From IMG/VR virus record IMGVR_UViG_3300022918_000010: 64,000 nucleotides of DNA. One strand, given 5' to 3'. The position numbers were made by a program, and so were the translations under genes. This document shows positions 1,336 through 26,419 of this stretch, piece by piece. The notes beneath the pieces were generated by a model. The model was not told the DNA's origin and ran no database searches. It saw only the letters and a list, made by a program, of their open reading frames with translations. Position 1 is the first letter of the stretch; the number at the start of each line of letters is the position of its first letter. Source of the stretch: a virus. Taxonomy: Duplodnaviria > Heunggongvirae > Uroviricota > Caudoviricetes.

Positions 1336-1336
1336 T

Positions 1337-1950: not shown

Positions 1951-1951
1951 T

Positions 1952-2278: not shown

Positions 2279-2290
2279 TACGTCCCGTTA

Positions 2291-2320: not shown

Positions 2321-2332
2321 AAATTTAAAATT

Positions 2333-4429: not shown

Positions 4430-4431
4430 TT

Positions 4432-5384: not shown

Positions 5385-5405
5385 AAACTTAAAAACAAAA
5401 AACAT

Positions 5406-6016: not shown

Positions 6017-6046
6017 ACTTTATATGTTTATAAACTTATAATATTT

Positions 6047-11461: not shown

Positions 11462-12490
11462 ATGGATCAAAAATATTTTAAATCAGGAAATAATTATTTC
11501 CTACGTGAAGTAAGTAATGTAGAAGACCCTCTACAAGTAGCACTATATGTGTTACAATTCTCTCCTAAAGAAGGATTTTATTTAGAGAAATCAGCAGAAG
11601 ATTTTCATGTAAATCATAAAATATATGGTAAAGATGAAAAAGCATTTACAGAACGTGTAAAGAAAACATTTAATGCTACCAAAGATAATCTTGGTGTATT
11701 ATTAAATGGAGTAAAAGGTACTGGCAAGTCAGTTCAATTAAAATTAATAGCTAATCATCTTGAGTTACCTATTATTATTATTCCACAAGCTTATGAAGGT
11801 GTAGCAGATTATATTAGTAAAATACCTTATTCAGTTACTCTTGTATTTGATGAGTTTGAAAAAATGTATCCTGCTAACTATAATAACAATGCTGATATAC
11901 TTACAGTAATGGAAGGTGTACTTGCAAATCAATATAGAAGAGTATTCTTATTGACAACAAATAGCACTTATATTAATGATAATCTTCTAGAAAGACCAGG
12001 AAGAATTAGATATCATAGGACTTATGAAGATCTTCCTTTAGAGACAATAGAGGAGATTGTAGATGATCTACTTGAATATAAAGATCTTAGAACTGCTACA
12101 ATTGATTTCTTATCGACTCTTAAAACTATTACTATTGATATAGTAAAGAAAATTGTTGAAGAGGTTAATATCCATAATGAAGACCCTAAAATCTTTGGTA
12201 AATATTTTAATATCAAAAAAGATAGTAAAAAATATGATGTATTAATCATTAATGAGAATGGTACTGAAAAAGTATGGTTTGAAGATGTAGCTTTACCTGT
12301 TTTTGATCCTAAAAAGCCAATTAAAGATCTTAGAGTAAATGGTGAATGGGAAGCTAAAATTATTAGTATTCTTTCTCCAACTATGTTAATTGTTGATGAA
12401 CAGCTAAATGAAAATAATGAACCAGAAGTTCATATTAAGATTAAAATTGTAGATAGAGATAATCTACATAAATCATTTAGAGTTTTCTAG
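11462..12490 (+). CDS. AAA-type ATPase
   Basis: Walker A GVKGTGKS, Walker B LVFDEFEKM, sensor-1 LLTTN. Confidence 0.6.
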   Translation: MDQKYFKSGNNYFLREVSNVEDPLQVALYVLQFSPKEGFYLEKSAEDFHVNHKIYGKDEKAFTERVKKTFNATKDNLGVLLNGVKGTGKSVQLKLIANHLELPIIIIPQAYEGVADYISKIPYSVTLVFDEFEKMYPANYNNNADILTVMEGVLANQYRRVFLLTTNSTYINDNLLERPGRIRYHRTYEDLPLETIEEIVDDLLEYKDLRTATIDFLSTLKTITIDIVKKIVEEVNIHNEDPKIFGKYFNIKKDSKKYDVLIINENGTEKVWFEDVALPVFDPKKPIKDLRVNGEWEAKIISILSPTMLIVDEQLNENNEPEVHIKIKIVDRDNLHKSFRVF

Positions 12491-12521: not shown

Positions 12522-12529
12522 TAGATTTG
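12522..12529 (+). promoter_or_regulatory. TAGATTTG match to Bacteroidota -7 promoter consensus TAnnTTTG
   Basis: exact consensus match in the gap upstream of the first family-C array. Confidence 0.35.
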
Positions 12530-12565
12530 ATGACATGGGAGCAATCCCATGTAAAAACCATAGAT

Positions 12566-12841
12566 ATGAAAACAAAGTATGAAGTAGGAGATATGGCTAT
12601 TATTGTTAGGTATGATAAATATAAAGGAGATAAGTCACAGAATAATATAGGTGAATTGGTTTGTATAACTACAGCTGGAAGCTTGACAAGAGCTCCTCAA
12701 GTTCTTATAGCTGATGATAGAATATTTACACAAGATTCTGTATTTACTTGTGATGTAAATGAACTTTTTCCTATAGAAAAATACATAGAAGTAATAGATA
12801 TGAATTTAGATAAGTTAATAGATAAGTATGGCAAAAGATAA
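12566..12841 (+). CDS. small protein, paralog family C (C-terminus NLDKLIDKYGKR)
   Basis: track ORF 12527 starts with TTG inside the promoter motif; start moved to MKTKYEVGDMAIIV, which fits the family N-terminus. Confidence 0.5.
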   Translation: MKTKYEVGDMAIIVRYDKYKGDKSQNNIGELVCITTAGSLTRAPQVLIADDRIFTQDSVFTCDVNELFPIEKYIEVIDMNLDKLIDKYGKR

Positions 12842-13169
12842 TACAATATTTCAACAAGGTAAATACTATATTATTACAGAATTCAAAAAAGGATATGGTA
12901 AATCTTTTAGTAATATATTTAAAGATCACATATATATATCTAGAAAAAGTGACAATGGATATTTATTTCCAAGACTTGATAGTCTTGGTAGAATAAATTC
13001 TGGTATTCACACTAACTATATAGAAAGTTATAGAGAAGCAACTAAAGAAGAAATAATTAGATATAGAAAGCTAAAGAAACCTTTTGATATTAATGATAAA
13101 TCATATATAATAGATGATATTAATATGTATTTAGATATATTAGAATTAAAATTTAAAGAAGATGAATAA
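12828..13169 (+). CDS. small protein, paralog family C
   Basis: LLKKPFD and YLDILELKF motifs shared with 13162. Confidence 0.6.
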   Translation: MAKDNTIFQQGKYYIITEFKKGYGKSFSNIFKDHIYISRKSDNGYLFPRLDSLGRINSGIHTNYIESYREATKEEIIRYRKLKKPFDINDKSYIIDDINMYLDILELKFKEDE

Positions 13170-13497
13170 TAGATTTAGTCAAGGACAATGTATAGTAATA
13201 ACTAAATTAAATACTAGTTATATATCTTCTAAAGATCAGTATTTGAAAGTTAATCATGTATATAAACAAAGAAAAAATTATAACTGTTTATTACCTATGT
13301 TAGATAGTAATGGTAAAGAAAATACACGTGTACATTTTATAAACCCAGCTAATAATTATGATAATGAATGTAGAGCAGCTACCCCAACAGAAGCTGCTAG
13401 ATATAAGTTACTAAAGAAACCATTTGATGTTTATAATAATGCTTATTTAATAGAAAAGATGTTTGATGATTTAGATAAATTAGAGAAGAAATTGTAA
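13162..13497 (+). CDS. small protein, paralog family C
   Basis: paralog of 12828 (LLKKPFD...DLDKLEKKL). Confidence 0.6.
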   Translation: MNNRFSQGQCIVITKLNTSYISSKDQYLKVNHVYKQRKNYNCLLPMLDSNGKENTRVHFINPANNYDNECRAATPTEAARYKLLKKPFDVYNNAYLIEKMFDDLDKLEKKL

Positions 13498-13844
13498 TGT
13501 TTAAAAGAGGAGAAAGAGTAGTATTAAAGAAATGTGATATAGAAGGTTATAGATTTAACTTTGAATATAACTTATCTAATGATCCTAACACTATAATAGA
13601 TGAATCTGATGATATTTATAATTCACAATATGGTGAAATAGCTAAAGATTGGATAAAAGATAATTCTACTATAGGAGTAAATTGGTATAATTCTAAAGAA
13701 GAAATTATAAATACTAAAGATCCACTTAATATGTATGTTATCGAGTCTAATGGTAATTTAGTAGAAATTGAACATATACAACTGTATTCTATAGATAAAA
13801 TTATTAGTGATTTAGATACATTAGAAAATGGACTTAAAGATTAA
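13497..13844 (+). CDS. small protein, paralog family C
   Basis: MFKRGERVVL ... LDTLENGLKD. Confidence 0.6.
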   Translation: MFKRGERVVLKKCDIEGYRFNFEYNLSNDPNTIIDESDDIYNSQYGEIAKDWIKDNSTIGVNWYNSKEEIINTKDPLNMYVIESNGNLVEIEHIQLYSIDKIISDLDTLENGLKD

Positions 13845-14157
13845 AAAAGGTGATAAACTAAAATTAGTCAAGACTTTAAATTCTAGATATTTTTATCCAG
13901 ATGGAAGATTAAAATTTACTGAATTGATAGATTATCAATATTTTGAAGTTGATAAACATAAACCTTATCCAGATAAAATTAATTGTTCATTTTGTGAAGG
14001 TGAATTTATATTAAAAGATGGTTCTAGATCAAAAACTTATAATGTTAATTATAGAGAAAATAAGGATTTTGGTATTGAAGTAGAATTGTATGATTTAATA
14101 AAAATTGAAGATATAATAAGTAATTTGGATAAACTGGAAAGTAAATATAATGTTTAA
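13828..14157 (+). CDS. small protein, paralog family C
   Basis: KKGDKLKL ... NLDKLESKYNV. Confidence 0.6.
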   Translation: MDLKIKKGDKLKLVKTLNSRYFYPDGRLKFTELIDYQYFEVDKHKPYPDKINCSFCEGEFILKDGSRSKTYNVNYRENKDFGIEVELYDLIKIEDIISNLDKLESKYNV

Positions 14158-14467
14158 GGCTGGAGATAAAGTTAGGCTTATAGTTGATAAAGATAGTAGA
14201 TATTTTAACGAAGATTTAAGTCATGTACATGAAAATTTAATAGGTTATAAGTATGGGATATTAAAGGATAATTTAACTTATATATATGAGGACCCTGGTA
14301 CTGAAAAATTTTATGTTAATTGGTTAGAAATAGGTGGAAACTTTACTAGTGATTGGGGTATATATGATGGATCAAATAAGAAACACAAGTGTGAAATAGA
14401 GTTTTATCAATATGATATAAATAGAATAGTTAAGAATTTAGAGATATTAGAAAGTAAATATGAGTGA
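14150..14467 (+). CDS. small protein, paralog family C
   Basis: MFKAGDKVRL ... NLEILESKYE. Confidence 0.6.
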   Translation: MFKAGDKVRLIVDKDSRYFNEDLSHVHENLIGYKYGILKDNLTYIYEDPGTEKFYVNWLEIGGNFTSDWGIYDGSNKKHKCEIEFYQYDINRIVKNLEILESKYE

Positions 14468-14960
14468 ATTTAAAATAGGAGATATAGTAGTCTCACTTAT
14501 AGATCAAGAATCATCTACTAATCAAGAACCTGTTTCCATAAGAGAAGGTTATGTAGGTGAAAATATATCACCATTAGATAATCAAGTAGTATTCTTTGAT
14601 CAAACAGTGCCTGGAAAAGGATGTTATAAATCAGAGAACTTTAGATTAGCTACTGATGATGAGAAAGAACAGTTTTTGAAAGGAAGAAAAATAGTAGAAC
14701 CTGAATCACCTTTTGAGGAAGGTGATATAATAATAGTGGATACTAATGAGATAATATCAATTGATAAAAAAAATACTCTCAAAAGAGGTGTTATGGGTCA
14801 AATTGATGGTATAGTTAAAACTAAAGACATTAGTAAATCTATGTTTTATTTTGCTTCTACATTATTTGATCAACCACATACTATAGACGGGTATTATAGA
14901 TTGACAGATAAGTTTAGATTAGCTACACAAGAAGAAATTGATAATGAATCAAAACTCTAA
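14460..14960 (+). CDS. two-module family-C-related protein with FRLAT(D/Q)EE motifs
   Basis: two internal repeats, each starting FKIGD and ending FRLATxEE. Confidence 0.55.
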   Translation: MSEFKIGDIVVSLIDQESSTNQEPVSIREGYVGENISPLDNQVVFFDQTVPGKGCYKSENFRLATDDEKEQFLKGRKIVEPESPFEEGDIIIVDTNEIISIDKKNTLKRGVMGQIDGIVKTKDISKSMFYFASTLFDQPHTIDGYYRLTDKFRLATQEEIDNESKL

Positions 14961-15420
14961 ATTTGTAAATAATACTATCATAGTAGCATTGCTAGATATG
15001 AATAGTGTTGATGGTAATGAAAGTATAAAAGAAGGAACTGTAGATAGAGTATCAATATCTGGTAGCAGTGGTAAGTTTAGCTGTGATTGGGTTATTGGAT
15101 TTATAGATAGAAGAGCAACAGAAAGCTACTATAAAGCTGATAAAGAGATCTATTTTAGGTTAGCTACAGAAAGTGAAATTGAAGAGTTTAATAAAAAAGG
15201 AAGATATACAATAGATCAACCTAAATTTAAGATAGGTGATAAAATAGTAGCATTAGATGATATTACTACTACTGAAGATGAGTACTCAGTTAAGAAGGGA
15301 GAAGAAAGAACTATAGAAGATATAATTGTTAATAAAAAAGATATTAATAAATCTATATTTTGGTTTCCTGGACATAAAGGAGTATTTACAATGGAAGATA
15401 ATTTTAAATTAAAAGATTAA
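14938..15420 (+). CDS. two-module family-C-related protein (paralog of 14460)
   Basis: YFRLATESEIEEF and KFKIGDKIVAL repeats. Confidence 0.55.
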   Translation: MIMNQNSKFVNNTIIVALLDMNSVDGNESIKEGTVDRVSISGSSGKFSCDWVIGFIDRRATESYYKADKEIYFRLATESEIEEFNKKGRYTIDQPKFKIGDKIVALDDITTTEDEYSVKKGEERTIEDIIVNKKDINKSIFWFPGHKGVFTMEDNFKLKD

Positions 15421-15423
15421 ACA

Positions 15424-15825
15424 ATGACTGAAGAATTAAAAAATGCAGTAAAAAGAGAAGCTGCTCTATTAAGAGCAAATGCTACTCAAGAACAACTAGA
15501 TAAAATTAATCTAGATGATCTTAATGGATTATCAGCAGAATATTGTATATATGGACAGCTTACTGGATCATGTTATAATGATGAAGCTAGAGATCTATTT
15601 GCTAAATGTGCTATACCATATAGAAGAGGTATATATAGTGATTTTAATGAGGGTTCACCAGAACCAGCTGAAGCTACAGCAACATGTTTTGATGAAGCTG
15701 GAGAAGCTAGAAAACAGGGTAATCACTCGGCTATTGAGTATTATATATCTTTACCAGAGAATGAGTATAAATTACAAGGATTAGTAGATTTCTTACAAAA
15801 TAAAACAAATAAATTAATTTTATAA
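15424..15825 (+). CDS. hypothetical protein
   Basis: ORF track. Confidence 0.5.
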   Translation: MTEELKNAVKREAALLRANATQEQLDKINLDDLNGLSAEYCIYGQLTGSCYNDEARDLFAKCAIPYRRGIYSDFNEGSPEPAEATATCFDEAGEARKQGNHSAIEYYISLPENEYKLQGLVDFLQNKTNKLIL

Positions 15826-15837
15826 TTAAAAATAAGT

Positions 15838-16062
15838 ATGACAATAGCAGAACAAGCAACAGCTCAAGAAAGAAGAGAATTATTACAAAGAATGATTAAC
15901 TTAAACAAAGTAGAACCTGTAGATAGAAGTATCTATACTAAATCTGAACAGGATAAAGCTAAGTTGTTTAAACTTAAAAAGGAGTGGCAGGTGAAGATTG
16001 ATAATGGTTATCTAATCAATACAGTTATTCATTCTGGAGCATATACTGCAATCGCTGAATAA
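15838..16062 (+). CDS. hypothetical protein
   Basis: ORF track. Confidence 0.45.
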   Translation: MTIAEQATAQERRELLQRMINLNKVEPVDRSIYTKSEQDKAKLFKLKKEWQVKIDNGYLINTVIHSGAYTAIAE

Positions 16063-16508
16063 TGAAAAGATCAGTTGTATTAATAGTAATGGATACTCAA
16101 AGTAGAGTGTTATTACTAAAAAGACCAGAGCATCATACTTATGGATCAGAATGGTGTTTCCCTGGTGGAAAAGTAGATTACATAGTTGATGATGTTAAAT
16201 ATCAGATATATGGTACTGATTCACATGGTACTATTAAACGTTTTGAAACAGATGATGAAGCTTGTGTAAGAGAATGTATTGAAGAAACTGGTTACGTACC
16301 AGCTGTAATACAAGATACATTAGTAACTGCTAGTGATGGAAAATATTTAGTTAAAGTATTTGTATCCCACGAACGTATAGAAGAAAATGAAGTAACAAAG
16401 AAATTTCCTAACAGAGAACATACTGAGTATAGATTCTTTGCTTTGAATGAATTACCTGAAGATATAGGTAAATTAACTAATAAAATTTTAAAACACGTAC
16501 AACTTTAA
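16062..16508 (+). CDS. Nudix-family hydrolase (probable)
   Basis: Nudix-box-like E-x7-RECIEETGY, preceded by PGGKVD. Confidence 0.5.
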   Translation: MKRSVVLIVMDTQSRVLLLKRPEHHTYGSEWCFPGGKVDYIVDDVKYQIYGTDSHGTIKRFETDDEACVRECIEETGYVPAVIQDTLVTASDGKYLVKVFVSHERIEENEVTKKFPNREHTEYRFFALNELPEDIGKLTNKILKHVQL

Positions 16509-16511
16509 AAC

Positions 16512-17675
16512 ATGGCTGAAACACAAGACGAAATTATTGAACAATTAGAAGCTAAGGTTCAAGAATATGAGAATTTATTAGAAGAGACTCTTTCTGATAA
16601 AAAAGGATTTGGTAAGATACTAGCAGGTCCTTTTGATCATGATGGTAAGAAGTATTATAGAGTTTCTATAGGAAGTGATATATCAATGGTATATGCTGCT
16701 GAAGTTAGTATGTTTGATGGATCTCCAATTGATCCAACTTTACCTGAAGAAACAGAAGTTATTGTTGTAGGTCAAACTATAGCATGTGTTGTTCCTGAAG
16801 AACTTAAAGTTATTATCGAACCACCAGTATTTGATCTTATTTCATGGTCTGATATAGGTGGATTTAAATCACAACTTCAAATTATCAGAGATGCTATCGA
16901 ACTTCCTATGGTAAATGCTAAGTTAGCAGAAGAATTGGGTGTTCAACCTATCTGTGGTATTCTTTTATATGGAGCTCCAGGTTGTGGTAAAACATATATA
17001 GCAAAAGCTATTGCATCTACAGTACTTGGTGCAACTAGAATTGATCCACAAGCTTTTCAGTATATGAAAGGTGGTGAGATGTTATCTATGTATGTTGGTA
17101 AAACTGAACAGGATATTAAGAATTCATTTGCACAATGTAGAGATTACACTAAACGTACTGGTAAAAAAGCTATTATGTTTATTGATGAAGCTGAAGCATT
17201 ACTTCCTACAAGAGGTAGCAGAAGATCATCTGATGTAGAAACTACTATTGTACCAACATTCTTAAGTGAGATGTCTGGTTTTGAAGGTAATAATCCAATT
17301 GTTATCTTAGCAACTAATAAAAAAGATGCTATTGATGAAGCCATCCTTAGAGAAGGTAGGATTGATATTAAAATTGAGATCAAACGTCCTACAGAGCCTG
17401 ATGCATTAGAGATCTTTGAGATTCATCTTAAGAAACTTAAAACTCATGATGCTGTTGCAGATTTGGCAGAATTTGCATCTTCATCTTTATTTGGATCACC
17501 TGCTGCTAAGAAAGTTAGTGGAGCTATGATAGAAGCTATCTGTAAAGATGCAATACGTAAAACCATGACTAGAGTAATAGCTACTCCAAAAACTAAGGAG
17601 AAAGGAATAACCTTAGATGATATGTCAAAAGCAATAACAGCAATAAATACATCATATGTCACTACAAAAGCGTAA
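16512..17675 (+). CDS. classic-clade AAA+ ATPase (CDC48/FtsH-type module)
   Basis: Walker A GAPGCGKT, Walker B IMFIDEAEAL, second region ILATNKKDAIDEAILREGRIDIKIEI. Confidence 0.75.
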   Translation: MAETQDEIIEQLEAKVQEYENLLEETLSDKKGFGKILAGPFDHDGKKYYRVSIGSDISMVYAAEVSMFDGSPIDPTLPEETEVIVVGQTIACVVPEELKVIIEPPVFDLISWSDIGGFKSQLQIIRDAIELPMVNAKLAEELGVQPICGILLYGAPGCGKTYIAKAIASTVLGATRIDPQAFQYMKGGEMLSMYVGKTEQDIKNSFAQCRDYTKRTGKKAIMFIDEAEALLPTRGSRRSSDVETTIVPTFLSEMSGFEGNNPIVILATNKKDAIDEAILREGRIDIKIEIKRPTEPDALEIFEIHLKKLKTHDAVADLAEFASSSLFGSPAAKKVSGAMIEAICKDAIRKTMTRVIATPKTKEKGITLDDMSKAITAINTSYVTTKA

Positions 17676-17928
17676 AGGTCAAGAATCTGATCAAGAACAG
17701 AGTGGTTTAGAATCTCTTAAAGAGAAGTTCTCTAAAGAGAAAGCTAAAGTTATAGATACTGAAATATCTCAAGAAGACAGACAAGTTAGATTAACTGTAA
17801 CTATGGATCAATTCTGTGGGTGTGGAGGAAAAGAAGATGTTGAAGTTACAAGAACTGTTCCATGGGATTCTCCATTAAATGATGGAGATAAAGTGGAAGG
17901 TTTTCATGACTCTGACGAAATACATTAG
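17656..17928 (+). CDS. hypothetical acidic protein
   Basis: ORF track; CGCGG pair. Confidence 0.45.
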   Translation: MSLQKRKGQESDQEQSGLESLKEKFSKEKAKVIDTEISQEDRQVRLTVTMDQFCGCGGKEDVEVTRTVPWDSPLNDGDKVEGFHDSDEIH

Positions 17929-17935
17929 TAAGATA

Positions 17936-17960
17936 GGGGACTCAAAAGGTCCCCTTTTTA
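17936..17960 (+). terminator. rho-independent terminator
   Basis: GGGGAC-loop-GTCCCC followed by TTTTTAATTTT. Confidence 0.7.
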
Positions 17961-17970
17961 ATTTTACATT

Positions 17971-18231
17971 ATGATTCCAGGAGAAAAAAGACAATTAACA
18001 GATTTAGGAAGAGAACAATTTAAATTAATAAAATGGGATAGTATAGCTAATTCCAGATATGGAATTGTTGAAATAAATTCCTCTGATATAACTTGGTATA
18101 ATGATCTTAATCAAAATATAGGAAAAAGTGGATGCTGTAGAGATGGTTGGCATATTGAATGGGAAGAACCTTATACTATTGAGAAAATTGAAGAGAATTT
18201 AGATAAACTAATTAAGAAATGTTTAAGTTAA
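17971..18231 (+). CDS. small protein, paralog family C
   Basis: ...NLDKLIKKCLS; next ATG embedded. Confidence 0.6.
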   Translation: MIPGEKRQLTDLGREQFKLIKWDSIANSRYGIVEINSSDITWYNDLNQNIGKSGCCRDGWHIEWEEPYTIEKIEENLDKLIKKCLS

Positions 18232-18482
18232 ATGATAAAGTAACTCTTTCTGAAGAAGGTGTAAAAGTATTTGATGCTCCTAATGAAACTAATATTAGAA
18301 ATTCAGCTTATGGTATAATAACATATTATAGTGAATCTAATATAGATGTAATTTGGTATGATTATAATCATAATAAAATAAAAGTTACTGGATCTTATAA
18401 AGGTTGGATTCAACATTATATTATATATGATATTAACGAAATTGAGCAAAATTTAGATAAATTGATAGAAAAATATGTATAA
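18219..18482 (+). CDS. small protein, paralog family C
   Basis: MFKLNDKVTL...NLDKLIEKYV. Confidence 0.6.
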   Translation: MFKLNDKVTLSEEGVKVFDAPNETNIRNSAYGIITYYSESNIDVIWYDYNHNKIKVTGSYKGWIQHYIIYDINEIEQNLDKLIEKYV

Positions 18483-18765
18483 GAAAGGAGATAGAGTTGA
18501 ATTAACATATGAAGGTATAGAAGATTTAAATTCTATAAGTCGTACTGATATATTAACATCTCATTATGGTATTTGTCAAGATGATATTATTTCACTTAAT
18601 CCAAATTTTGGACCTCATGTACATTGGTATGATCAATATCATAATTATATATCTAATTCAGGAACAGATATTAGATGGATTAAGCACTTTAAAGAAGTTG
18701 AACCATATAATATCAGTAAAATAATGAATAATTTAGATAAACTTATTGAAAAATGTTTAAAGTAG
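18475..18765 (+). CDS. small protein, paralog family C
   Basis: MYKKGDRVEL...NLDKLIEKCLK. Confidence 0.6.
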   Translation: MYKKGDRVELTYEGIEDLNSISRTDILTSHYGICQDDIISLNPNFGPHVHWYDQYHNYISNSGTDIRWIKHFKEVEPYNISKIMNNLDKLIEKCLK

Positions 18766-19067
18766 GAGATAAGATTAAATTTAATGATTATACTAAATCT
18801 TTAATAAATGCTAGTAATCATGAATATTATAGAAGTGCGATATGGAAATCAGTAGAATATATGATTATTGATATAGTACGTACTCAAAGTTATGGTGCTA
18901 GATGCTTTTATATCAATGGTCTACCCATCGAAGATTTACATACAGGACAACCTATACATGAAGATATTGAACTATATATCAAATATAATATAGAAGAAAT
19001 AATAAACGATTTAAATAACTTAGAACAAAAATTAAATGGAAAATTGGTTAATAATATTAGCAGCTAG
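18753..19067 (+). CDS. small protein, paralog family C
   Basis: MFKVGDKIKF...LNNLEQKLNGK. Confidence 0.6.
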   Translation: MFKVGDKIKFNDYTKSLINASNHEYYRSAIWKSVEYMIIDIVRTQSYGARCFYINGLPIEDLHTGQPIHEDIELYIKYNIEEIINDLNNLEQKLNGKLVNNISS

Positions 19068-19407
19068 TTTATGTTGTGCTGGTATATCATTCACAGTTAC
19101 AATATCTGGAATGTTTGAAGGATTAAGAAATTGGATTTATGATAAAAATAAATTCTTAGGTGAACTTATAACATGTCCATGGTGTTTTGGACATTATGTT
19201 GTATTTGTATTGTTACTTATTTCAGATATACAATATATAATTGTGTCACAGTATGTAGTTTTTAACTTTTTATTTACATCTTTTGTAATAATTGGATTAA
19301 TGGGACTATGGCATAAGATATTACTTGTAGCATATGACCCTGTAATGAAGATTAAAGCTCAAAGAGAAATAAATAGATTAAAGATAGCTAAAGCTAAATC
19401 TGAATAA
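19036..19407 (+). CDS. membrane protein (3-4 TM)
   Basis: hydrophobic segments; CPWCFGH motif. Confidence 0.5.
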   Translation: MENWLIILAASLCCAGISFTVTISGMFEGLRNWIYDKNKFLGELITCPWCFGHYVVFVLLLISDIQYIIVSQYVVFNFLFTSFVIIGLMGLWHKILLVAYDPVMKIKAQREINRLKIAKAKSE

Positions 19408-19410
19408 TAT

Positions 19411-19484
19411 ATAGGAGTCGTATAAATGGTTAGTAAGATTCGCTGAAGAATCTGGTGGTAGTTCGAATCTGCCCTCCTATGCCA
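19411..19484 (+). tRNA. tRNA-like gene with encoded 3' CCA; anticodon uncertain (possibly CUG/Gln)
   Basis: perfect 7-bp acceptor stem ATAGGAG/CTCCTAT, discriminator G then CCA. Canonical T-arm GGTAG-TTCGAAT-CTGCC. D-loop contains GG. Anticodon arm GATTC-GCTGAA-GAATC does not give a standard 7-nt loop in a manual fold. Confidence 0.6.
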
Positions 19485-19498
19485 CTAAATAAAGTGAT

Positions 19499-19894
19499 AT
19501 GACATATTCAAAAGTAACACCAGAGATCACCAGAGAAGTGATCAGAATGAGAGGTCTAGGTAAACAGCTAGAAGTAATAGCTAAAGCTGTTGGAATCTCT
19601 ACAACATCAGTATTCAGAATTGTGAATACAAGGAAAACAATTATAAATGGAGCAAATAATGGACAAATAGTCTCTGCTAAAGAATTAATTAGTAAAAGTA
19701 TATCAAAACCAAATGATTCTACTTTTGTAGAACGTATGCAAATGGCTAAACAAGCTAAGAAAGTCGCACCACTTCCTGTAGAAGAGAATACAATCAATCT
19801 TACAATTGAATTTAATGGTATAAAAATCCATGTAAATAATAAAGTAAGTGATGTATACTTATCACAATCTTCAATACGAGTTATAACTAAGTAA
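19499..19894 (+). CDS. helix-turn-helix DNA-binding protein
   Basis: LEVIAKAVGISTTSVFRIV HTH-like segment; the overlapping minus-strand ORF 19477-19902 is rejected. Confidence 0.5.
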   Translation: MTYSKVTPEITREVIRMRGLGKQLEVIAKAVGISTTSVFRIVNTRKTIINGANNGQIVSAKELISKSISKPNDSTFVERMQMAKQAKKVAPLPVEENTINLTIEFNGIKIHVNNKVSDVYLSQSSIRVITK

Positions 19895-19953
19895 TATACC
19901 ATAAGTACAGCAGATCTAATATAAGCTATAGGTTCCCTGGAATACTACCCTTA

Positions 19954-19961
19954 TAGGTTTG
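19954..19961 (+). promoter_or_regulatory. TAGGTTTG match to Bacteroidota -7 consensus
   Basis: 28 nt upstream of ATG 19989. Confidence 0.35.
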
Positions 19962-19988
19962 GTCTGTTGTACTTTCTATTTTAATATT

Positions 19989-20294
19989 ATGAAGGAAATA
20001 AAAGAAGGAGACTCAATAAAATTTACAAATAAAGCAAAACTAAATTTATCTATTGATGGATATTATATGGATGATGATGATTGTAAAGATGGTTGGAATA
20101 AAATGAAATTCATGATCGTTAAGAAGATCGAACAAAATGGATATGTAATAACTGGTTTTGATAAAAACAATGATCTTATAACAGAAATACAAGATCATGC
20201 ACCTAGAAAAGAAGATTGTGAATTTTATAACAATTATAATATAGATGAAATTATGAGTAATTTAGATAAACTTAAAAACAAATGGAAAAGATAG
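19989..20294 (+). CDS. small protein, paralog family C
   Basis: track ORF 19959 trimmed to MKEIKEGDSIKF; ...NLDKLKNKWKR. Confidence 0.55.
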   Translation: MKEIKEGDSIKFTNKAKLNLSIDGYYMDDDDCKDGWNKMKFMIVKKIEQNGYVITGFDKNNDLITEIQDHAPRKEDCEFYNNYNIDEIMSNLDKLKNKWKR

Positions 20295-20647
20295 TAGCAA
20301 CACCAAATAATGTTAAAGTAGGTACTAAAGTTATTATTGATAAAACTAATACAAGATTATCTAAATGGGCAACTATAATAGTGAACAGTGACCAATATCG
20401 TTTAGTTGAATATTTTAAAGTAATAAGATTTAATAAAGTTAATGATAATATAGTATATGTAAATGGTTATAATCTTAATGATAAAAAGATAGATATTGCG
20501 GAAGATGTACTATGTATAGGTTATGATGGATTTTATGATGTTACACTTTATGAAAATACTCCAGATTATGATCTTGATAGTATTTTGAATAATCTTGATA
20601 AACTTCGATATAAGTTACCTAAAAAGAAATGGTGGAAAATATTTTAA
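20282..20647 (+). CDS. small protein, paralog family C
   Basis: ...NLDKLRYKLPKKKWWKIF. Confidence 0.55.
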   Translation: MEKIVATPNNVKVGTKVIIDKTNTRLSKWATIIVNSDQYRLVEYFKVIRFNKVNDNIVYVNGYNLNDKKIDIAEDVLCIGYDGFYDVTLYENTPDYDLDSILNNLDKLRYKLPKKKWWKIF

Positions 20648-20656
20648 TAAAAGAAT

Positions 20657-20965
20657 ATGACTAAAGGAGATATAGTAAAAAATGACAACTTTAAAAAAGG
20701 ACATAAAGTTATAAAAGGTCCTGATTGGGAATATGGAGATCAGGATATACATTCTATATATGGTGTAATAGTAACTCCTCCAGGGACATATAATGAAGAT
20801 TGTGAAGTTATCTGGATAGATCAACATAATCATCCATTAAAGAAATATGTATATAGAACAGGAAGAGCTGGTAAACATGATTTAGTATTTTATCAAGATA
20901 CAATTGATTATTCATTAGAAGATATGTTTGCAGATCTAGATGCTTTGGCAGATAAATTTAAATAG
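20657..20965 (+). CDS. small protein, paralog family C
   Basis: MTKGDIVKND...DLDALADKFK. Confidence 0.55.
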   Translation: MTKGDIVKNDNFKKGHKVIKGPDWEYGDQDIHSIYGVIVTPPGTYNEDCEVIWIDQHNHPLKKYVYRTGRAGKHDLVFYQDTIDYSLEDMFADLDALADKFK

Positions 20966-20967
20966 TT

Positions 20968-21291
20968 ATGATAACTTTTATAGGAGACCATGAAACAGCA
21001 AAATTGTTAGGAGATCAAAAGGTTAAAATATACTTAACTAGAGAAGGAGCACTTCGGTATAGAACTACTAATAATTTTATTTACAATAATTATGAATATG
21101 GTTTAATAGAATATGTTACTAAAGGTGCATTTACTATTCAATGGTATGATAGGTCAAGTAAGAGTATAGGAGGTGAAACTCATTTATATGGATTTGAGCT
21201 TTTATATTATTTATCTGAAAAGCTTAATTCAATCCCTTCTATAGAAAGTATAATTATCAATCTTGAAAAACTAGAAAAGAAATATGTATAA
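20968..21291 (+). CDS. small protein, paralog family C
   Basis: ...NLEKLEKKYV. Confidence 0.55.
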   Translation: MITFIGDHETAKLLGDQKVKIYLTREGALRYRTTNNFIYNNYEYGLIEYVTKGAFTIQWYDRSSKSIGGETHLYGFELLYYLSEKLNSIPSIESIIINLEKLEKKYV

Positions 21292-21580
21292 TATTAATAT
21301 TGAAGATAAAGTATACTTTACTCCTGATGCTAAAAACAGATTAATAATGTATTTTAATAATCATGCTGTAGATCATGGTATTATTAAAAGTGAATATAGA
21401 GGCGGCAAAGAATTAATATTATTAACTATAATAGATATGTTTGGTCTTGTTATAGATGAGAACTTTGTTGTATCATGTTTAGATATTAGTACCGAACGTT
21501 ACAACGATATTGAAACAGTAATGCATAATATCTTAGTAAATTTAAATAAATTAGAAAAGAAAATCATAAAACAAAAATAA
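21284..21580 (+). CDS. small protein, paralog family C
   Basis: ...NLNKLEKKIIKQK. Confidence 0.55.
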   Translation: MYNINIEDKVYFTPDAKNRLIMYFNNHAVDHGIIKSEYRGGKELILLTIIDMFGLVIDENFVVSCLDISTERYNDIETVMHNILVNLNKLEKKIIKQK

Positions 21581-21581
21581 C

Positions 21582-22259
21582 ATGGAAAAATTAGTAGTCC
21601 CACAATTTGATCACGAAGCAAAAGGATTGTCAGCATCATTAGGATTGACAGATAGAGATGTACATTATGTAAGATCTGCTATCTTATTTGAAGCATTAGC
21701 TTGCCCTATATTAGCTAAAGAATTATTTGATGAAGATCAAGCACCAGCTAACATGACAACTATGACAGGAGTTATGGAAAGAGTTTATCTTCATATGAGA
21801 AATTATGTAGAGCAATTCTATATGACAATGATATTTGCTGATGGTTGGTTTAATATTCAGAATGCTATTAAACATTCAGAACAATTAGGTGAAAGAGAAG
21901 CTGAGATTAATGAATTACCTGAAGCATTAAAGAAAATGCTTAGTAAAGCTATTGGAGGGCCACTTCAAACACTTACTGGAGTAACAGCTCAAATTAGACA
22001 ATCATCTTTTAATTTCAATGAATTTGTTAACATAGTTCTTGATGACAATAATTATAATGCTTCAGGTAAATACTGTCCTACAGAGATAGAACCTAATGAA
22101 ACTGATATTAAAGAAGTTGAAGAATTTATGGCTAAAAAACTTGAAGCATTTAAAGAGAAAGCTGAAAAGTTAAAGAAAGAAAAAAAAGCTAAGAAGAAAG
22201 ATAAGAAGAAGTCTAAGGACAATCCTGAAAGTACAACTGAAGAAAAGAAAGATGAATAA
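21582..22259 (+). CDS. hypothetical protein with Lys/Glu-rich tail
   Basis: C-terminus KKEKKAKKKDKKKSKD. Confidence 0.5.
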   Translation: MEKLVVPQFDHEAKGLSASLGLTDRDVHYVRSAILFEALACPILAKELFDEDQAPANMTTMTGVMERVYLHMRNYVEQFYMTMIFADGWFNIQNAIKHSEQLGEREAEINELPEALKKMLSKAIGGPLQTLTGVTAQIRQSSFNFNEFVNIVLDDNNYNASGKYCPTEIEPNETDIKEVEEFMAKKLEAFKEKAEKLKKEKKAKKKDKKKSKDNPESTTEEKKDE

Positions 22260-22623
22260 TATAGGTATTATAATAGGATTTATTCCTACAGTATTTATAT
22301 TATTTTATATAGTAAAAATACTAATTGAAGCATTTAAACATGAATGTTACTACTTTGTATCTTACTACTGGACATCACAAGATCAAAAAGGACATGGAAA
22401 TATAGAAGTTATATTACATGGTACTACAATAGATTCTTATGATGATATGGAAGAAATAACTCATTATATAGAAGATAGAGTTAGAGATAGTAAAGGAAAA
22501 CAAGTTAAAGCTATAGTACTTAATATAGTTAAATTAACTAAAGCTTCAAAAAACGGTAAAACAGATAACATATTATTTACAGACGAAGGTATAATTATAA
22601 AACAAAATGAAAAGAACATATAA
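22252..22623 (+). CDS. membrane-anchored protein
   Basis: N-terminal TM IGIIIGFIPTVFILFYIV. Confidence 0.5.
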   Translation: MNNIGIIIGFIPTVFILFYIVKILIEAFKHECYYFVSYYWTSQDQKGHGNIEVILHGTTIDSYDDMEEITHYIEDRVRDSKGKQVKAIVLNIVKLTKASKNGKTDNILFTDEGIIIKQNEKNI

Positions 22624-22993
22624 GATAGCTAGTACAATATTATTAATTGGTATATTATTTTGGATTGGTGAAACAGTGTTTTTCCTTATAAAAGATGGAT
22701 GGCACTACAGACCATTATCAGTATCTGAAGCTCAGTGTGATAAAATAGTAAGTTATATATTTACTTTAGGTTGGATATTTATGGTAGTTGCTGCAATGGA
22801 AACTATACAATGGACTATAAGAGCTAAAGATGATATTGAATTATTATTTGAGTTACTAGAAAGGAATACAGAAGTTACTAGAGCTAATAGTAAATCATTT
22901 ATGTCACTTATGGATGATCTTAAAAAAGCATTTGATTCAATAGGTAATTCTAAGGAAAAGAAACCTGAAGAAAAGGTAGAGAAAACAGAATAA
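22607..22993 (+). CDS. membrane protein (2 TM)
   Basis: hydrophobic segments. Confidence 0.5.
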   Translation: MKRTYKIASTILLIGILFWIGETVFFLIKDGWHYRPLSVSEAQCDKIVSYIFTLGWIFMVVAAMETIQWTIRAKDDIELLFELLERNTEVTRANSKSFMSLMDDLKKAFDSIGNSKEKKPEEKVEKTE

Positions 22994-22999
22994 TTACAT

Positions 23000-23029
23000 G
23001 GGTCCTTTAATCGGGACCCTTTTTATTTT
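23000..23029 (+). terminator. rho-independent terminator
   Basis: GGGTCC-loop-GGACCC followed by TTTTTATTTT. Confidence 0.7.
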
Positions 23030-23034
23030 AAGAT

Positions 23035-23292
23035 ATGTTTAACAAAGGAGATGTAATTGTAGTACGTGAAGATCGTGAATGTTATGATGAATATAGTGAT
23101 ACTGATTATATAGTAGATCGTATGGAAAATAGTAATCATAGTGTTTATTGTTATCCTACATCTGGTGAACGTTTAGGACAATTACATGGTTTTGACCTAA
23201 AAGATGTTGTTCTAAAAAATCAATATTTCATTGAAGATATAATTAAAGATTTAGAAATACTAGAGAAAAGATGTTTAATAAAGGAGATATAG
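23035..23292 (+). CDS. small protein, paralog family C
   Basis: MFNKGDVIVV...LEILEKRC. Confidence 0.6.
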   Translation: MFNKGDVIVVREDRECYDEYSDTDYIVDRMENSNHSVYCYPTSGERLGQLHGFDLKDVVLKNQYFIEDIIKDLEILEKRCLIKEI

Positions 23293-23516
23293 TTACAATA
23301 ATACCTGGTACTAGATATTTTAAAGATTATTCATATACAAATTATAGAGTAGAAGAATTTACTAGTAATGATCATATTCAAACAAAGCCTATATCAGGTA
23401 ATAAAACAATGCAAGTACATTCATTTACTATACTTGATATAATGTTAGCATCAGATCCTATAGATTCTATATTAGAAAATCTAGAAATATTAGAAAAGAA
23501 ATATGAAAAAGCATGA
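23271..23516 (+). CDS. small protein, paralog family C
   Basis: MFNKGDIVTI...LEILEKKYEKA. Confidence 0.6.
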   Translation: MFNKGDIVTIIPGTRYFKDYSYTNYRVEEFTSNDHIQTKPISGNKTMQVHSFTILDIMLASDPIDSILENLEILEKKYEKA

Positions 23517-23787
23517 ATATTTAATGGCTGAAGACCATTATGAAGTAAGAAGTGTAAAGAAGGGTAGAAAAGAAAAAGTTTGTGAATATTGTGGAAGAGC
23601 TATACCTATAGGAGCTCCAGCAAATACCCACACATTCTATCCTGAATTTCAAGCTTATGATACACATTTAAAATGTAGTGATGATTTTGAGGCTAGTCTA
23701 AATACTCAAGAAGACATAAAACAAAAAGAGTATGAAGAATCCACTGAATATCAATTACAACAAGTTAGAGAATTAATTAAAGAATAA
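23503..23787 (+). CDS. putative zinc-binding small protein
   Basis: CEYCGR...HLKC. Confidence 0.45.
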   Translation: MKKHEYLMAEDHYEVRSVKKGRKEKVCEYCGRAIPIGAPANTHTFYPEFQAYDTHLKCSDDFEASLNTQEDIKQKEYEESTEYQLQQVRELIKE

Positions 23788-24431
23788 TGGCATCAGGAGA
23801 TTTAAGTATAGCAGGATCAGGTTCTCCTATATCAATGCAAAAGTTTACAGACTATTTAGATGCAGAAACTCCTATAGAAAAGCAACCAGAATTAATTGTA
23901 ATGCTTAATCAATCAGGACAAGGATTATTACAGGATAATGATAGTATAGTTCAAGTTATGATAGCTGATAGAGTAATGCAAGCTCATTATTGGAGAGATG
24001 AATTCTGGAATGGAAAGCAGATATCAGCATACTTATATAGATATGTATATTATATGCTAGAAGAAGACGAATATGATATAGTTAAACATAAATATCCAAA
24101 TAACCAAGCTATAGTAGATGCATTAACTTCAGGAGCTTTAACAGAAACTTCAGATGAGTTTGTAAGAATGAAAGGTTATTTTGAATGGCTTAAAAGTAAT
24201 AATGAAGTAACTCATATAGTAGGATTAGTCCAATTAGTAGGAGGTTCATTAAGAGCTGCTGCTAAAAAACAATCTTATCTTAGAATATTTATAGAAGAAC
24301 CTGAAACAGGTATGCATCCTAAAAGAGAAAGAAAACTTGTAACATTAATTAAAATGTTAGGAGATGACTATGGATTTAGTCAAAAAAATCATGACAGAGA
24401 TGTTGATGAAGCTAGAAAAATAATAGGATAA
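23787..24431 (+). CDS. hypothetical protein
   Basis: ORF track. Confidence 0.5.
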   Translation: MASGDLSIAGSGSPISMQKFTDYLDAETPIEKQPELIVMLNQSGQGLLQDNDSIVQVMIADRVMQAHYWRDEFWNGKQISAYLYRYVYYMLEEDEYDIVKHKYPNNQAIVDALTSGALTETSDEFVRMKGYFEWLKSNNEVTHIVGLVQLVGGSLRAAAKKQSYLRIFIEEPETGMHPKRERKLVTLIKMLGDDYGFSQKNHDRDVDEARKIIG

Positions 24432-24433
24432 TA

Positions 24434-24685
24434 ATGTTCAATATTGGTGATAAAATTAAGGTAAAGCATGTTGGTTTAGGTCATAAACCTTATATAACTC
24501 AAGTATTTACTGTTATATACGCAAGTCATGAATATATTACTTGTACTACTGAAGATTATGTTGATGCTAAATCTATACATGAAAATTATACATTTGATGA
24601 AAATGATTGTTATCTATATTATATGTACGATATAAACCTAATAATAGCTGACCTTGAAAAATTAGAGAAAAAATATGAAAGATAA
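24434..24685 (+). CDS. small protein, paralog family C
   Basis: MFNIGDKIKV...LEKLEKKYER. Confidence 0.6.
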   Translation: MFNIGDKIKVKHVGLGHKPYITQVFTVIYASHEYITCTTEDYVDAKSIHENYTFDENDCYLYYMYDINLIIADLEKLEKKYER

Positions 24686-24950
24686 AGTAAGATTAATTTG
24701 TCAACTCAATGGTTCTGATAAATTTTATGAGATGGAGCAGAAGATAGAAGGAACTTTTGATGTATTCTATGGAAGAATAGGAGCAGCTCCTCAAACAAAA
24801 ACTTATCATATAAGTGATTGGCAGAAAAAATATAATGAAAAGATTAATAAAGGTTATAAAGATATATCTGAAAGCATAGTTAAATTTAGTCTTGAAGATG
24901 TATTTGCTAATCTAGATAAACTAGAACTTAAGCTAAGTGAAAAAGGGTGA
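24675..24950 (+). CDS. small protein, paralog family C
   Basis: KDKVRL...NLDKLELKLSEKG. Confidence 0.55.
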   Translation: MKDKVRLICQLNGSDKFYEMEQKIEGTFDVFYGRIGAAPQTKTYHISDWQKKYNEKINKGYKDISESIVKFSLEDVFANLDKLELKLSEKG

Positions 24951-25227
24951 TAAAGTCCAGCTTAATGAAAAAGGTTACAAAGGATATAATATAGGCCAAG
25001 GATCTGAATTAAAACTACGTAATAATTTTGGATATGCTATTATAAATCGTATTAATAAAGAAAAAATAGATTATATATCAGTTGATATATATAATGTACA
25101 ACAGGCTAAATTAAGTACTATAGAGGGATGTGCAAGTTGGTTTGAGCCTTATGAAGAACCTTTTGATATAGATAATACTATAGATAATCTAAATAAATTA
25201 GAAATTAAACTAAAAAAAGATGAGTAA
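24937..25227 (+). CDS. small protein, paralog family C (GTG start)
   Basis: KKGDKVQL...NLNKLEIKLKKDE. Confidence 0.5.
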   Translation: MKKGDKVQLNEKGYKGYNIGQGSELKLRNNFGYAIINRINKEKIDYISVDIYNVQQAKLSTIEGCASWFEPYEEPFDIDNTIDNLNKLEIKLKKDE

Positions 25228-26419
25228 TACACAATTGGTTATACCAAAAACAATTACTGTAGGTTATCAAGAGAGATCTGATACTTACACTAAAAGATTA
25301 GCATATATTATATATACAGATGCTAAAGGAGTACTTAGAAAAGAAAAATCCTGGAGAGCATGGTGTGAACTTGGTCAACAACATCAATATGGTGCTCCAG
25401 GTCAAATGAGAAAAAATTTAGGTTCAGATGTTTATGATAATGCTCCTACAGAAGGATTTGTATTAAATAAAGGAGCTGGAGGTTATGCTGGAAGTAGTTC
25501 ATCATGGAACATTAGAAAAGAAACTATTAGAGTTTATGATCCAAGAGGATTTGAATTTGAAATTAGTATAGCTAATCTATTATTCATACTTGAAAATAGC
25601 AATTCTTATAAGGGTAAAGGATTAGAAGGTGAATTTGTTTATTCCTGGGAAGGAACTGAACTTGTATTACTTCCTGCTGCATGTGATGAGTATAAAAAGT
25701 CTCAAGTATTTACTAATCTTCAATCTGGTAAAGTAGCCAGTAAAGATCTAGTAGAAGGTGGAACATATGAAACTAAGAGACAAGAAAAACTTGTTTATAT
25801 GGGAAGACATATGTGGTTTACTTTTGATGGTTATTATAAAAAAGAAGCTAAGTTTAGAAAAGTATATGCTTTTATGAATGAAGCTGGAGCCTTTGTAACT
25901 CAAACTGGATTAACTTCTATTGCTGCTACAATTGATGATAAACCTATATCAGATTATGCAAATAGAGTTGAGAAGTTTGAGAAGACTTGTGCTTTTAACT
26001 TATCTAAACCAAAAGAGTTTTTCTTAAAACCAGCTAAGTTTAATACAAAAAATAGAAATTATGGTTGGGTTGAAGCTAATGATGGAAGTAAATTCTGCCA
26101 GAAAGTAGGAGATCTTTATAAACACTATCATATTTATTGTAAACAAACTTATGAGCAAAAAAGAGCTACTGATAGTTGGATGTTAGGTAGAATGATAGAT
26201 GATATAAAAAAACCTCTTGGTTATCGTATGTGTATGGTTCCCATAGAAGATCTTATTATAAAAAATGATACTATTATTCAAAAAGAAAATAGGGAAAATC
26301 ATAATGATGTTATAAATGGAAAACATACTAAATGGTATACAGAATCTGAAATAGAACCTTTAGTAAGTGTATTATGGTTGAAAATGGATTCAGGTAAAGA
26401 AGTAATATTTAACAAATAA
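25220..26419 (+). CDS. hypothetical protein (399 aa)
   Basis: ORF track; no motif recognised. Confidence 0.55.
   Translation: MSNTQLVIPKTITVGYQERSDTYTKRLAYIIYTDAKGVLRKEKSWRAWCELGQQHQYGAPGQMRKNLGSDVYDNAPTEGFVLNKGAGGYAGSSSSWNIRKETIRVYDPRGFEFEISIANLLFILENSNSYKGKGLEGEFVYSWEGTELVLLPAACDEYKKSQVFTNLQSGKVASKDLVEGGTYETKRQEKLVYMGRHMWFTFDGYYKKEAKFRKVYAFMNEAGAFVTQTGLTSIAATIDDKPISDYANRVEKFEKTCAFNLSKPKEFFLKPAKFNTKNRNYGWVEANDGSKFCQKVGDLYKHYHIYCKQTYEQKRATDSWMLGRMIDDIKKPLGYRMCMVPIEDLIIKNDTIIQKENRENHNDVINGKHTKWYTESEIEPLVSVLWLKMDSGKEVIFNK

Follow-up and report, generated by a model that had tools for sequence, protein, structure and literature searches.

Family C is a group of small proteins encoded in tandem arrays within a 64,000-nucleotide window (the whole stretch of DNA analysed here) from a virus of the Caudoviricetes, IMG/VR record IMGVR_UViG_3300022918_000010. 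Its members, 81–121 residues long and accounting for about 16% of the genes in the window, carry a common C-terminal tail, predicted to be helical, which is a module found on unrelated folds. When related phages are compared, the tail is the constrained part of these proteins and the bodies that precede it turn over as cassettes. We propose that the tail may be a shared protein–protein interaction helix and that the bodies may be diversified binding domains of host-interaction factors, a reading for which we regard the chances as evenly balanced.

The tail comprises roughly 17–18 residues at the extreme C-terminus and reads Y-x-I-[DE]-x-I-[ILMF]-x-[ND]-L-[DEN]-K-L-E-x-K-[YLCF]. Numbering starts at the first of two invariant leucines (position 0), the second being located at +3. 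Both leucines are present in 22/22 members, N/D at −1 and D/E/N at +1 in 21/22 each, while +6 is K in 19/22, −7 and −4 are I in 18/22 each and +4 is E in 15/22; Y/L/C/F/I at +7 belongs to the heptad positions conserved in 18–22 of 22. Polar positions are conserved alongside the hydrophobic ones, which is more than a generic amphipathic helix needs. At the N-terminus of the helix, the pattern Y-[DSNT]-I-[DE]-x-I combines a hydrophobic staple and a capping box: Y occupies N′, D/S/N/T forms the N-cap and I takes N4. In the heptad core, the a and d positions are filled by I,I / L,L / Y or L, and E(+4) and K(+6) occupy the e and g positions of the second heptad. This is the heptad pattern of a coiled-coil-type helix, although it spans only about 2.5 heptads. 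The two AlphaFold models of family members both predict that the C-terminus is a helix (residues 72–86 of 87 and 73–89 of 91), as had been proposed from the letters alone.

The conservation of the tail resides at the protein level, in line with the original prediction for the gene junctions. The invariant leucines are encoded by TTA, CTA, CTT, TTG and CTG, which belong to both leucine codon families, and tail-coding DNA is 60–80% identical between copies. A hidden Markov model (HMM) of the tail alone, run against the window and about 60 kb of related loci, found the motif nowhere else; within this material the tail is never internal and never occurs on proteins longer than about 125 residues. 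The N-terminal strand, thought to open most members in the form M(F/Y)K-x-GD, is less uniform: [KN]-x-G-[DE] occurs in about 16/22 members, but only 8 show M[FY][KN]xG[DE] at the very start. The element which defines the family is the tail and not the body.

Membership was established with a family HMM seeded by 17 obvious members, chosen by their tail motif. This seed model recovered five further open reading frames (ORFs; 23035, 41442, 20282, 20657 and 6703) at E values between 2e-10 and 2e-5; among 284 decoys, reversed or shuffled, none scored better than E = 0.13 with the full family model. The five arrays that had been delineated are all present, at 12566–14467 (six genes), 17971–19067 (four), 19989–21580 (five), 23035–23516 (two) and 24434–25227 (three), and all members lie on the plus strand. 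At least 23 copies had been claimed; 22 are solid, namely the 20 genes of the five arrays and the isolated genes at 6703–7035 and 41442–41798. The full model gives the remaining candidate, 1663–1950, an E value of 0.11, and the tail-only model gives it 9.4 bits (decoy maximum 5.0). It carries the second half of the tail only (YYLDKLEQKL; YYLDKLEQKLKTK), and since this is combined with a body related to no other group, we count it as borderline. The claim that the family is real and had not been named before is well founded: 20/22 members have no model in Pfam, PHROGs or NCBIfam, and tblastn against 50,697 GenBank phages returned nothing.

Once the tails are removed, the unity of the family disappears. 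Grouping by phmmer after deletion of the last ~18 residues splits the bodies into at least five subfamilies plus singletons. The largest cluster, the core group, comprises 13497–13844, 13828–14157 and 14150–14467, the latter two linked to each other and 14150 being the last gene of array 1; 17971–18231, 18219–18482 and 18475–18765 in array 2, where 17971 is the first gene and 18475 the best-scoring member of the family; 20968–21291 in array 3; and 24937–25227, which starts with GTG and closes array 5. Four pairs stand apart. In array 1, 12828–13169 (tail YIIDDINMYLDILELKF) and 13162–13497 share a body of the type YREATKEE...KKPFD (E = 1e-13 without tails). The two genes of array 4, 23035–23292 and 23271–23516, form a second pair, and the last gene of array 2 (18753–19067) is paired with the first gene of array 3 (19989–20294). 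Finally, 20282–20647 in array 3 is related to the isolated gene 41442–41798, and its tail is prolonged by the basic stretch ...KLPKKKWWKIF, which its orthologues have kept. The singleton bodies are those of 6703, of the first gene of array 1 (12566–12841, longest ORF from a TTG at 12527; tail KYIEVIDMNLDKLIDKY), of the last gene of array 3 (21284–21580), and of the first two genes of array 5 (24434–24685 and 24675–24950). The array 3 gene 20657–20965 (tail YSLEDMFADLDALADKF), the best-conserved member across phages, is linked to the others weakly.

Most bodies are SH3-like β-barrels of the Mib-Herc2/Tudor/KOW structural class, and several are unclassified. As a representative of the core group, 18219–18482 was modelled with AlphaFold2 on an alignment of the 22 paralogues. 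The model (predicted local distance difference test score, pLDDT, 90.9) shows a five-stranded barrel (strands at residues 7–10, 31–37, 42–47, 53–59 and 64–66), a two-helix insert after strand 1 (residues 12–27) and the tail helix. At the sequence level, 20657–20965 matches the Pfam MIB_HERC2 model (PF06701) with 33.9 bits for a gathering score of 33.5; the match extends over residues 15–79 and covers profile positions 1–65 of 66. Its orthologues in three related contigs (L001, L002 and L005) match the same model, while the other 21 members stay below the Pfam MIB_HERC2 gathering score. The suggested resemblance of the first strand to KOW was not recovered, as neither the KOW sequence motif nor a KOW model gave a match. 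Compared with MIB/HERC2, Tudor, KOW and PWWP domains, the family differs in that 20/22 members match no sequence model and in the two-helix insert that follows strand 1. It also differs from known Mib-Herc2, Tudor and KOW proteins by its tail and by the lack of a ubiquitin-ligase context.

A second named fold is found in array 5. The body of 24675–24950 (residues about 4–62, followed by a linker and the tail FSLEDVFANLDKLELKL) passes the Pfam WGR (PF05406) gathering score of 22 bits and has the WGR fold; its model matches a Bacteroides WGR protein and the WGR domains of PARP1 and PARP3. In this it resembles the WGR domains of PARPs and of bacterial MolR-like proteins, by Pfam score, model match and homology to a PARP WGR. 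The divergent relative L006 has, in place of array 5, a gene (14706–15914) that encodes a complete PARP, with a catalytic domain scoring 64.9 bits and weak PARP_reg and WGR matches. When this PARP is compared with the window by tblastn, only its N-terminal WGR finds a match, which is 24675–24950 (24714–24869, 38% identity, E = 2e-5), and no PARP catalytic domain is encoded in the window. In contrast to the WGR of a PARP, the protein of the window is thus a stand-alone WGR of 62 residues, bearing the family tail and no catalytic domain. Such a piece, related to a PARP gene and fitted with the tail of the family, appears to record the capture of a domain in progress. That a body homologous to a PARP WGR carries the tail is the most powerful single piece of evidence for a portable tail module. 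In both named members, MIB_HERC2 and WGR, the tail lies outside the Pfam domain envelope. We also considered a partnership between the tailed WGR protein and a neighbouring PARP in the window, but the adjacent 25220–26419 is unrelated to the L006 PARP (BLASTP E = 0.95; no Pfam or PDB match).

Comparison between phages indicates which part of the protein is held constant. Among reciprocal-best orthologues from three divergent phages (16 pairs), tails are 63% identical whereas bodies are 32% identical. A closer view is provided by L001, a 136.7-kb contig about 96% identical to the window over 20 kb. Here, 12 of 18 orthologous family pairs are near-identical; the remaining six combine bodies of 33–65% identity with tails identical at 13–18 of 18 positions. 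Genes that are replaced, absent or less than 80% identical in L001 amount to 8/20 in the family and 3/31 among the other genes of the same stretch (Fisher p = 0.015), and the ratio of nonsynonymous to synonymous substitution rates (dN/dS) is 0.33 in tails versus 0.64 in bodies.

Individual genes illustrate the exchange. Along 18753–19067, the DNA is 100% identical to L001 over the first ~32 nucleotides (nt), about 50% identical in the body (about 18785–18989), which is replaced, and again 100% identical from ~18989, where the tail starts. The same step-like profile is seen in 19989–20294 (body 30/77 residues identical, tail 16/18) and in 23035–23292 (body 39/65). For 21284–21580, the L001 counterpart keeps the tail VMHNILVNLNKLEKKIIKQK unchanged but joins it to another body (25/76). 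The last gene of array 5, 24937–25227, has diverged in both parts (51/78 in the body, 13/18 in the tail). Since identity drops exactly between the MFKxGD start and the beginning of the tail, the conserved first strand and the tail delimit an exchangeable cassette. Whole genes come and go as well, as expected if copy number varies among related phages: 20968 and 24434 have no counterpart in L001, and the absence of 24434–24685 is a clean one-gene indel between two A-rich junctions. Separately, we observed a second allele-replacement hotspot, outside family C, at 8777–10198, where three small genes (8777–9130, 9660–9896 and 9884–10198) show 49–64% identity to L001 and their neighbours 95–100%.

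The distribution of the family is narrow. A word-indexed search of 5.8 billion proteins gave seven matches, all on contigs of 135–138 kb. From 1.84 billion cluster representatives, an exhaustive profile search with HMMER retrieved 45 proteins at E ≤ 1e-3; about half are those of the window itself and the rest, with one exception, are proteins of 78–123 residues with the same tail. The exception, P0043 (698 residues), matched the profile only at the N-terminal strand (E = 2e-4) and is not a member; this partial match is consistent with an SH3/Tudor-like body. P0043 contains about 11 repeats of the type REGDKIEARYKGRERWFxGVIRRVNRDDTYDINYDDGERE, which have a Tudor/Agenet-like look. Arrays are kept in divergent relatives, with 11 members in 16 kb of L004, 14–15 in 19 kb of L006, 6 in 6 kb of L009 and 3 in 1.2 kb of L005, and the gene order is conserved (SPFH/Band_7, AAA, array, ..., NUDIX, AAA+, array). 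Elsewhere the searches were negative: IMG/VR, JGI metagenome contigs and GTDB genomes yielded no relatives with the AAA+ protein of this region or the alignment of the MIB_HERC2 member as queries; tblastn of the members found nothing in the GenBank phage records; PHROGs gave no match apart from two marginal ones to families of unknown function (E = 0.003–0.004); NCBIfam held nothing relevant for the members; and BFVD returned weak matches to uncharacterised proteins only. A literature search found no described family with this architecture. The family has no precedent in the databases and occurs only in one small clade of phages, all uncultured.

What could a constant helix on exchangeable bodies be for? 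Conservation extends to both faces of the helix, in the 22 paralogues and in several lineages of phages, and for this reason the constraint is best sought outside each protein. The presence of the tail on unrelated folds (WGR, MIB_HERC2) also speaks for a portable interaction module. Together with the concentration of allele replacement in the bodies, it is this externally constrained helix that leads us to the interaction reading. In such a scheme, the tail would bring all members to one common partner, or would bring the members together as a short coiled coil or helical bundle, and the bodies would supply diversified target recognition. The arrays would then represent an arsenal of host-interaction factors, for takeover or counter-defence, under diversifying selection and co-expressed from tightly coupled operons.

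Several points weigh against this proposal. In the SH3-type model, the tail helix is confidently placed (pLDDT 89–95) only five residues after the last strand, and might do no more than pack against the barrel of the same protein. For a stable free-standing coiled coil, a length of two and a half heptads is short. The absence of the tail from large proteins and enzymes is not what one might expect of a general-purpose docking tag. Orthologue-specific variants of the tail are conserved (DMFADLDALA, VMxxILVNLNKLEKKI and the KKKWWKIF extension), which could reflect co-adaptation of each tail with its own body and not with one hub. Overlap with the start and leader of the next gene places a further constraint on the last four to five codons of the tail. 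The floppy linker in the WGR model (residues 68–76, pLDDT < 50, with the tail helix beyond) counts for little because this model was built on three sequences and has a pLDDT of 71.8. Lastly, the early or host-takeover role is deduced only from the neighbouring genes.

Some of these points would find a natural place if the tail were an intramolecular capping helix. The members would then all descend from one ancient barrel-plus-helix fold whose core has diverged beyond recognition and is sealed by the helix. The short linker and the well-defined helix of the SH3-type model, the tail variants conserved along with their bodies, and the restriction of the tail to small bodies are all compatible with such a cap. 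However, the same tail is attached to WGR and complete MIB_HERC2 domains, both of which are self-sufficient Pfam folds that end before it, and in the WGR model it is set off by the low-confidence linker. A cap would not explain why the solvent-type positions (N, D, K, E, K) are conserved like the hydrophobic ones, nor why bodies are exchanged while the tail stays. On balance, we hold capping to be doubtful, although it deserves more weight than any of the alternatives that follow.

A more specific alternative concerns the putative partner. Between arrays 1 and 2 lies a gene for an AAA+ ATPase of the classical clade and unfoldase type (16512–17675, plus strand), whose best matches are VAT/p97/Cdc48 structures (E about 1e-67). 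The tails might dock the bodies, with the host proteins they hold, onto this proteasomal-type enzyme in the manner of adaptors. This ATPase of the Cdc48/VAT/Mpa/PAN clade keeps its place between the two arrays in all relatives with enough sequence, its first ~30 residues read as a heptad-patterned helix, and a second AAA ATPase (11462–12490, phrog_2376) directly precedes array 1 in the window, in L001 and in L004. Yet this is co-location alone, and adaptor docking would be a special case of the interaction-helix reading and not independent evidence for it. In NCBIfam, the ATPase scores 220 bits with pup_AAA (Mpa/ARC), 165 with CDC48 and 162 with PAN, far below every equivalog cutoff; none of the known substrate- or adaptor-binding domains matches its N-terminal 100 residues, and no protease partner was recognised. 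A possible PAN/Mpa-like N-domain, coiled coil plus OB, was considered for this protein, but Pfam gave nothing in residues 1–120.

Systems of this general kind exist. In poxvirus ankyrin/PRANC proteins (F-box-like), in SspB with its ClpX-binding tail and in Pup, whose helix lies on the Mpa coiled coil, a variable binder is combined with a conserved C-terminal docking element. The likeness to family C, diversified target-binding parts with one short conserved C-terminal element, is one of analogy only, as there is no sequence or structural relationship. By the same analogy, the arrays could form a programmable adaptor arsenal, in which the bodies would grip host proteins (for example of defence or housekeeping) and the tail would dock onto the AAA+ enzyme for their unfolding or extraction. 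If this were true, exchange of body cassettes would let a phage population re-target the system quickly, and the arrays would be a phage analogue of substrate-receptor families (F-box/PRANC, SspB/Pup-type delivery). Docking to this particular ATPase seems improbable to us, and the adaptor arsenal built upon it is a long shot to the same degree.

The gene junctions raise the question of whether the conserved ends are mainly nucleic-acid elements, such as a leader and start for reinitiation or handles for recombination, with the peptide motif as a by-product. As had been predicted, starts are embedded in the preceding tails: 18/22 members overlap the next start by 1–32 nt, with overlaps of 8 nt in six cases, 13 nt in three and 14 nt in three. 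In 10/11 members with Y, C or W at +7, this codon is created by the embedded ATG (AAA TAT G / AAA TGT / AAA TGG), so that the ‘K-Y’ end of the motif is partly shaped by dual coding. The E-K-K codons of the tail supply the A-rich leader of the next gene, a type of leader used genome-wide, and recombination breakpoints coincide with the conserved ends. Synonymous divergence (dS) between the window and L001 is 0.064 in tails and 0.173 in bodies, which at first sight points the same way; but a low dS is expected of tails, as they lie outside the replaced segments, and is therefore uninformative on nucleotide constraint. Moreover, a nucleic-acid reading accounts for at most the last four to five codons: the invariant leucines and the upstream Y-x-I-D-x-I-I-x-N vary synonymously, and tail DNA is only 60–80% identical between copies. 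The motif is also kept where no family gene overlaps downstream (6703, 20657, 21284 and 41442). An origin of the motif at the nucleic-acid level is accordingly still less probable than docking to the ATPase.

The same junctions had suggested that the arrays are read by continuous termination–reinitiation. The overlaps are there, but their special character was overstated: about 80 of 130 plus-strand junctions overlap, and because overlaps are the rule throughout the genome, translational coupling is not special to the family. Within the arrays such coupling is plausible. Arrays 2 and 4 start 15 nt downstream of strong intrinsic terminators, each a hairpin with a T-run on the plus strand (17935–17965 and 23000–23029), immediately before 17971 and 23035, respectively. 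The Bacteroidota promoter consensus TTTG-N17-21-TAnnTTTG occurs 3 times against 2.7 expected, never before the arrays; sigma-70-like sites are rarer than in shuffled sequences, and no promoter was assigned.

Least probable of all is that the tail is a signal for capsid packaging or injection and the proteins virion-borne effectors delivered with the DNA: many different small proteins do share a terminal peptide here, and T4 internal proteins offer a precedent with their shared capsid-targeting peptide, yet that peptide is N-terminal and cleaved by the prohead protease while the family C element sits at the extreme C-terminus, the arrays are surrounded by non-structural genes (ATPase, NUDIX and others), with the replication genes downstream, and do not sit in a structural module, and no prohead-protease-type site is evident, although no systematic search for one was made.

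Family C is not the only set of small proteins in the window. Families A and B (about 12 small proteins at 1054–6307 and 9359–9670; alignment A2) possess a C-terminal motif of their own, ...[LE]-x-x-A-[RL]-K-I-I-Y-x-D or IRKWLYD, which is shared by bodies of at least three types, including the pair 3209/3844 and the trio 2333/2914/4139. They follow the same design of variable body and constant tail, with another tail. The original prediction placed them with family C and the presumed fusion proteins at 14460–15420 in one superfamily comprising roughly a quarter of the genes. The count is right for the three groups together, but common homology is not borne out. A comparison of family C (alignment A1) with families A and B (A2) gives an hhalign probability of 0.1%, and the fusion proteins reach 1.3% and 1.8% against family C, with only the FKxGDxV strand aligned. 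These proteins, 14460–14960 and 14938–15420, each consist of two ~80-residue repeat units that start with FKIGD or FEEGD and end with F-R-L-A-T-x-E-E. They lack the family C tail, are 99–100% conserved in L001 and constitute a family of their own. An HMM of their repeat unit retrieved no family C member above decoys, and a relationship of the 12828/13162 bodies to these repeats through ‘[FY]R.AT.EE’ was not significant.

The protein encoded at 6047–6307 has a family-C-like start (MDIKIGDIVYL) and an A-type tail (LEQARKIIYTD), and the larger one at 23787–24431 (214 residues, weak AAA_21 match at the C-terminus) ends in ...DVDEARKIIG, an A-type-like tail. Tail types may be exchangeable between body types. 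A tail swap was also considered for the borderline 1663–1950, as a family B body with a C-type tail; a B-body HMM and phmmer gave nothing above decoys.

Directly after array 5, 25220–26419 (399 residues) matches phrog_2475 (unknown function, E = 9e-66) and has no sequence match in Pfam or the PDB; its L001 orthologue (430 residues, 89% identical) is less conserved than most neighbours. Between arrays 2 and 3, the intergenic segment 19410–19492 resembles a tRNA, with acceptor-type pairing (ATAGGAG/CTCCTAT), a T-arm (GGTAG-TTCGAAT-CTGCC), a 3′ GCCA and a 6-nt ‘anticodon’ loop. Neither ARAGORN nor Rfam calls it and its fold z-score is −1.5, so that it was not retained as a tRNA; it may be a decayed tRNA gene.

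The window itself is an AT-rich, phage-like sequence (G+C about 27–30%) whose genes nearly all lie on the plus strand. Before its end, a single sizeable block runs on the minus strand (44621–47313; six ORFs, several with hydrophobic N-termini), and GC and AT skew are locally reversed there. A 137,800-bp metagenomic contig encodes proteins identical to those of the window, and the source is an uncultured phage of ~137 kb. The phage is remote from those in GenBank: its family-B DNA polymerase shares at most about 35% identity with any GenBank phage counterpart, and megablast of the array region against the 50,697 phage records found no match. Shine–Dalgarno motifs are depleted upstream of starts (7% of 131 genes versus 13% at random positions), and the leaders are A-rich, with 50–63% A over positions −14 to −2 and 63% A at −3. 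An A-rich leader with few Shine–Dalgarno sites is a pattern known from Bacteroidetes (PMC6847099). Given this depletion, the A-rich leader and the Bacteroides protein that is the best structural match of the WGR member, the host is likely to belong to the Bacteroidota.

Family C can be related to known kinds of phage gene expansion. Bacillus phage G has about 35 zinc-ribbon copies, a lineage-specific expansion of small domains, and WGR-domain proteins and PARPs have been recorded in large phages (Iyer et al. 2021, PMC7824862). Like these expansions, which were read there as regulators or conflict factors, family C comprises dozens of paralogous single-domain proteins. Unlike them, it is unified by a short C-terminal helix on different folds and not by a domain, and it is organised in tight overlapping arrays whose bodies are exchanged as cassettes between near-identical genomes. 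For the exchange itself, the nearest precedent, as far as the cited accounts describe it, is the shuffling mediated by PeSLs in the hyperplastic regions of T4-type phages. PeSLs are described as non-coding promoter/stem-loop cassettes between unrelated ORFs which mediate modular shuffling (PMC2839356, PMC4122927). In both cases, indels and replacements between ~96%-identical phages are concentrated in small accessory genes of unknown function and bounded by short conserved recombination sequences (PMC2839356, PMC4122927). By comparison with PeSLs as they are presented there, the boundaries in family C are coding (first strand and last helix) and the shuffled ORFs come from one family. What is of a known kind is therefore the lineage-specific expansion of small accessory proteins; what is new is the shared tail on different folds and the coding nature of the cassette boundaries.

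Large phages spend much of their genome on small ORFs of unknown function. Within this fraction, the family shows a portable C-terminal helix grafted onto unrelated folds, and by using coding gene ends as cassette boundaries it parallels, in coding sequence, the non-coding cassettes that are shuffled in T4-type phages. Between near-identical phages, allele replacement is concentrated in family genes, which is the signature expected of host-interaction or counter-defence factors. If the tail were only a structural cap, family C would still be a new, well-delimited family and a clear example of cassette evolution. The constancy of the tail also has a practical side, as one 17-residue peptide used as bait gives an experimental handle on all members at once. 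Finally, new inhibitors or binders for hosts of the Bacteroidota type may be obtained from the bodies; phage–host conflict proteins known for such hosts are few.

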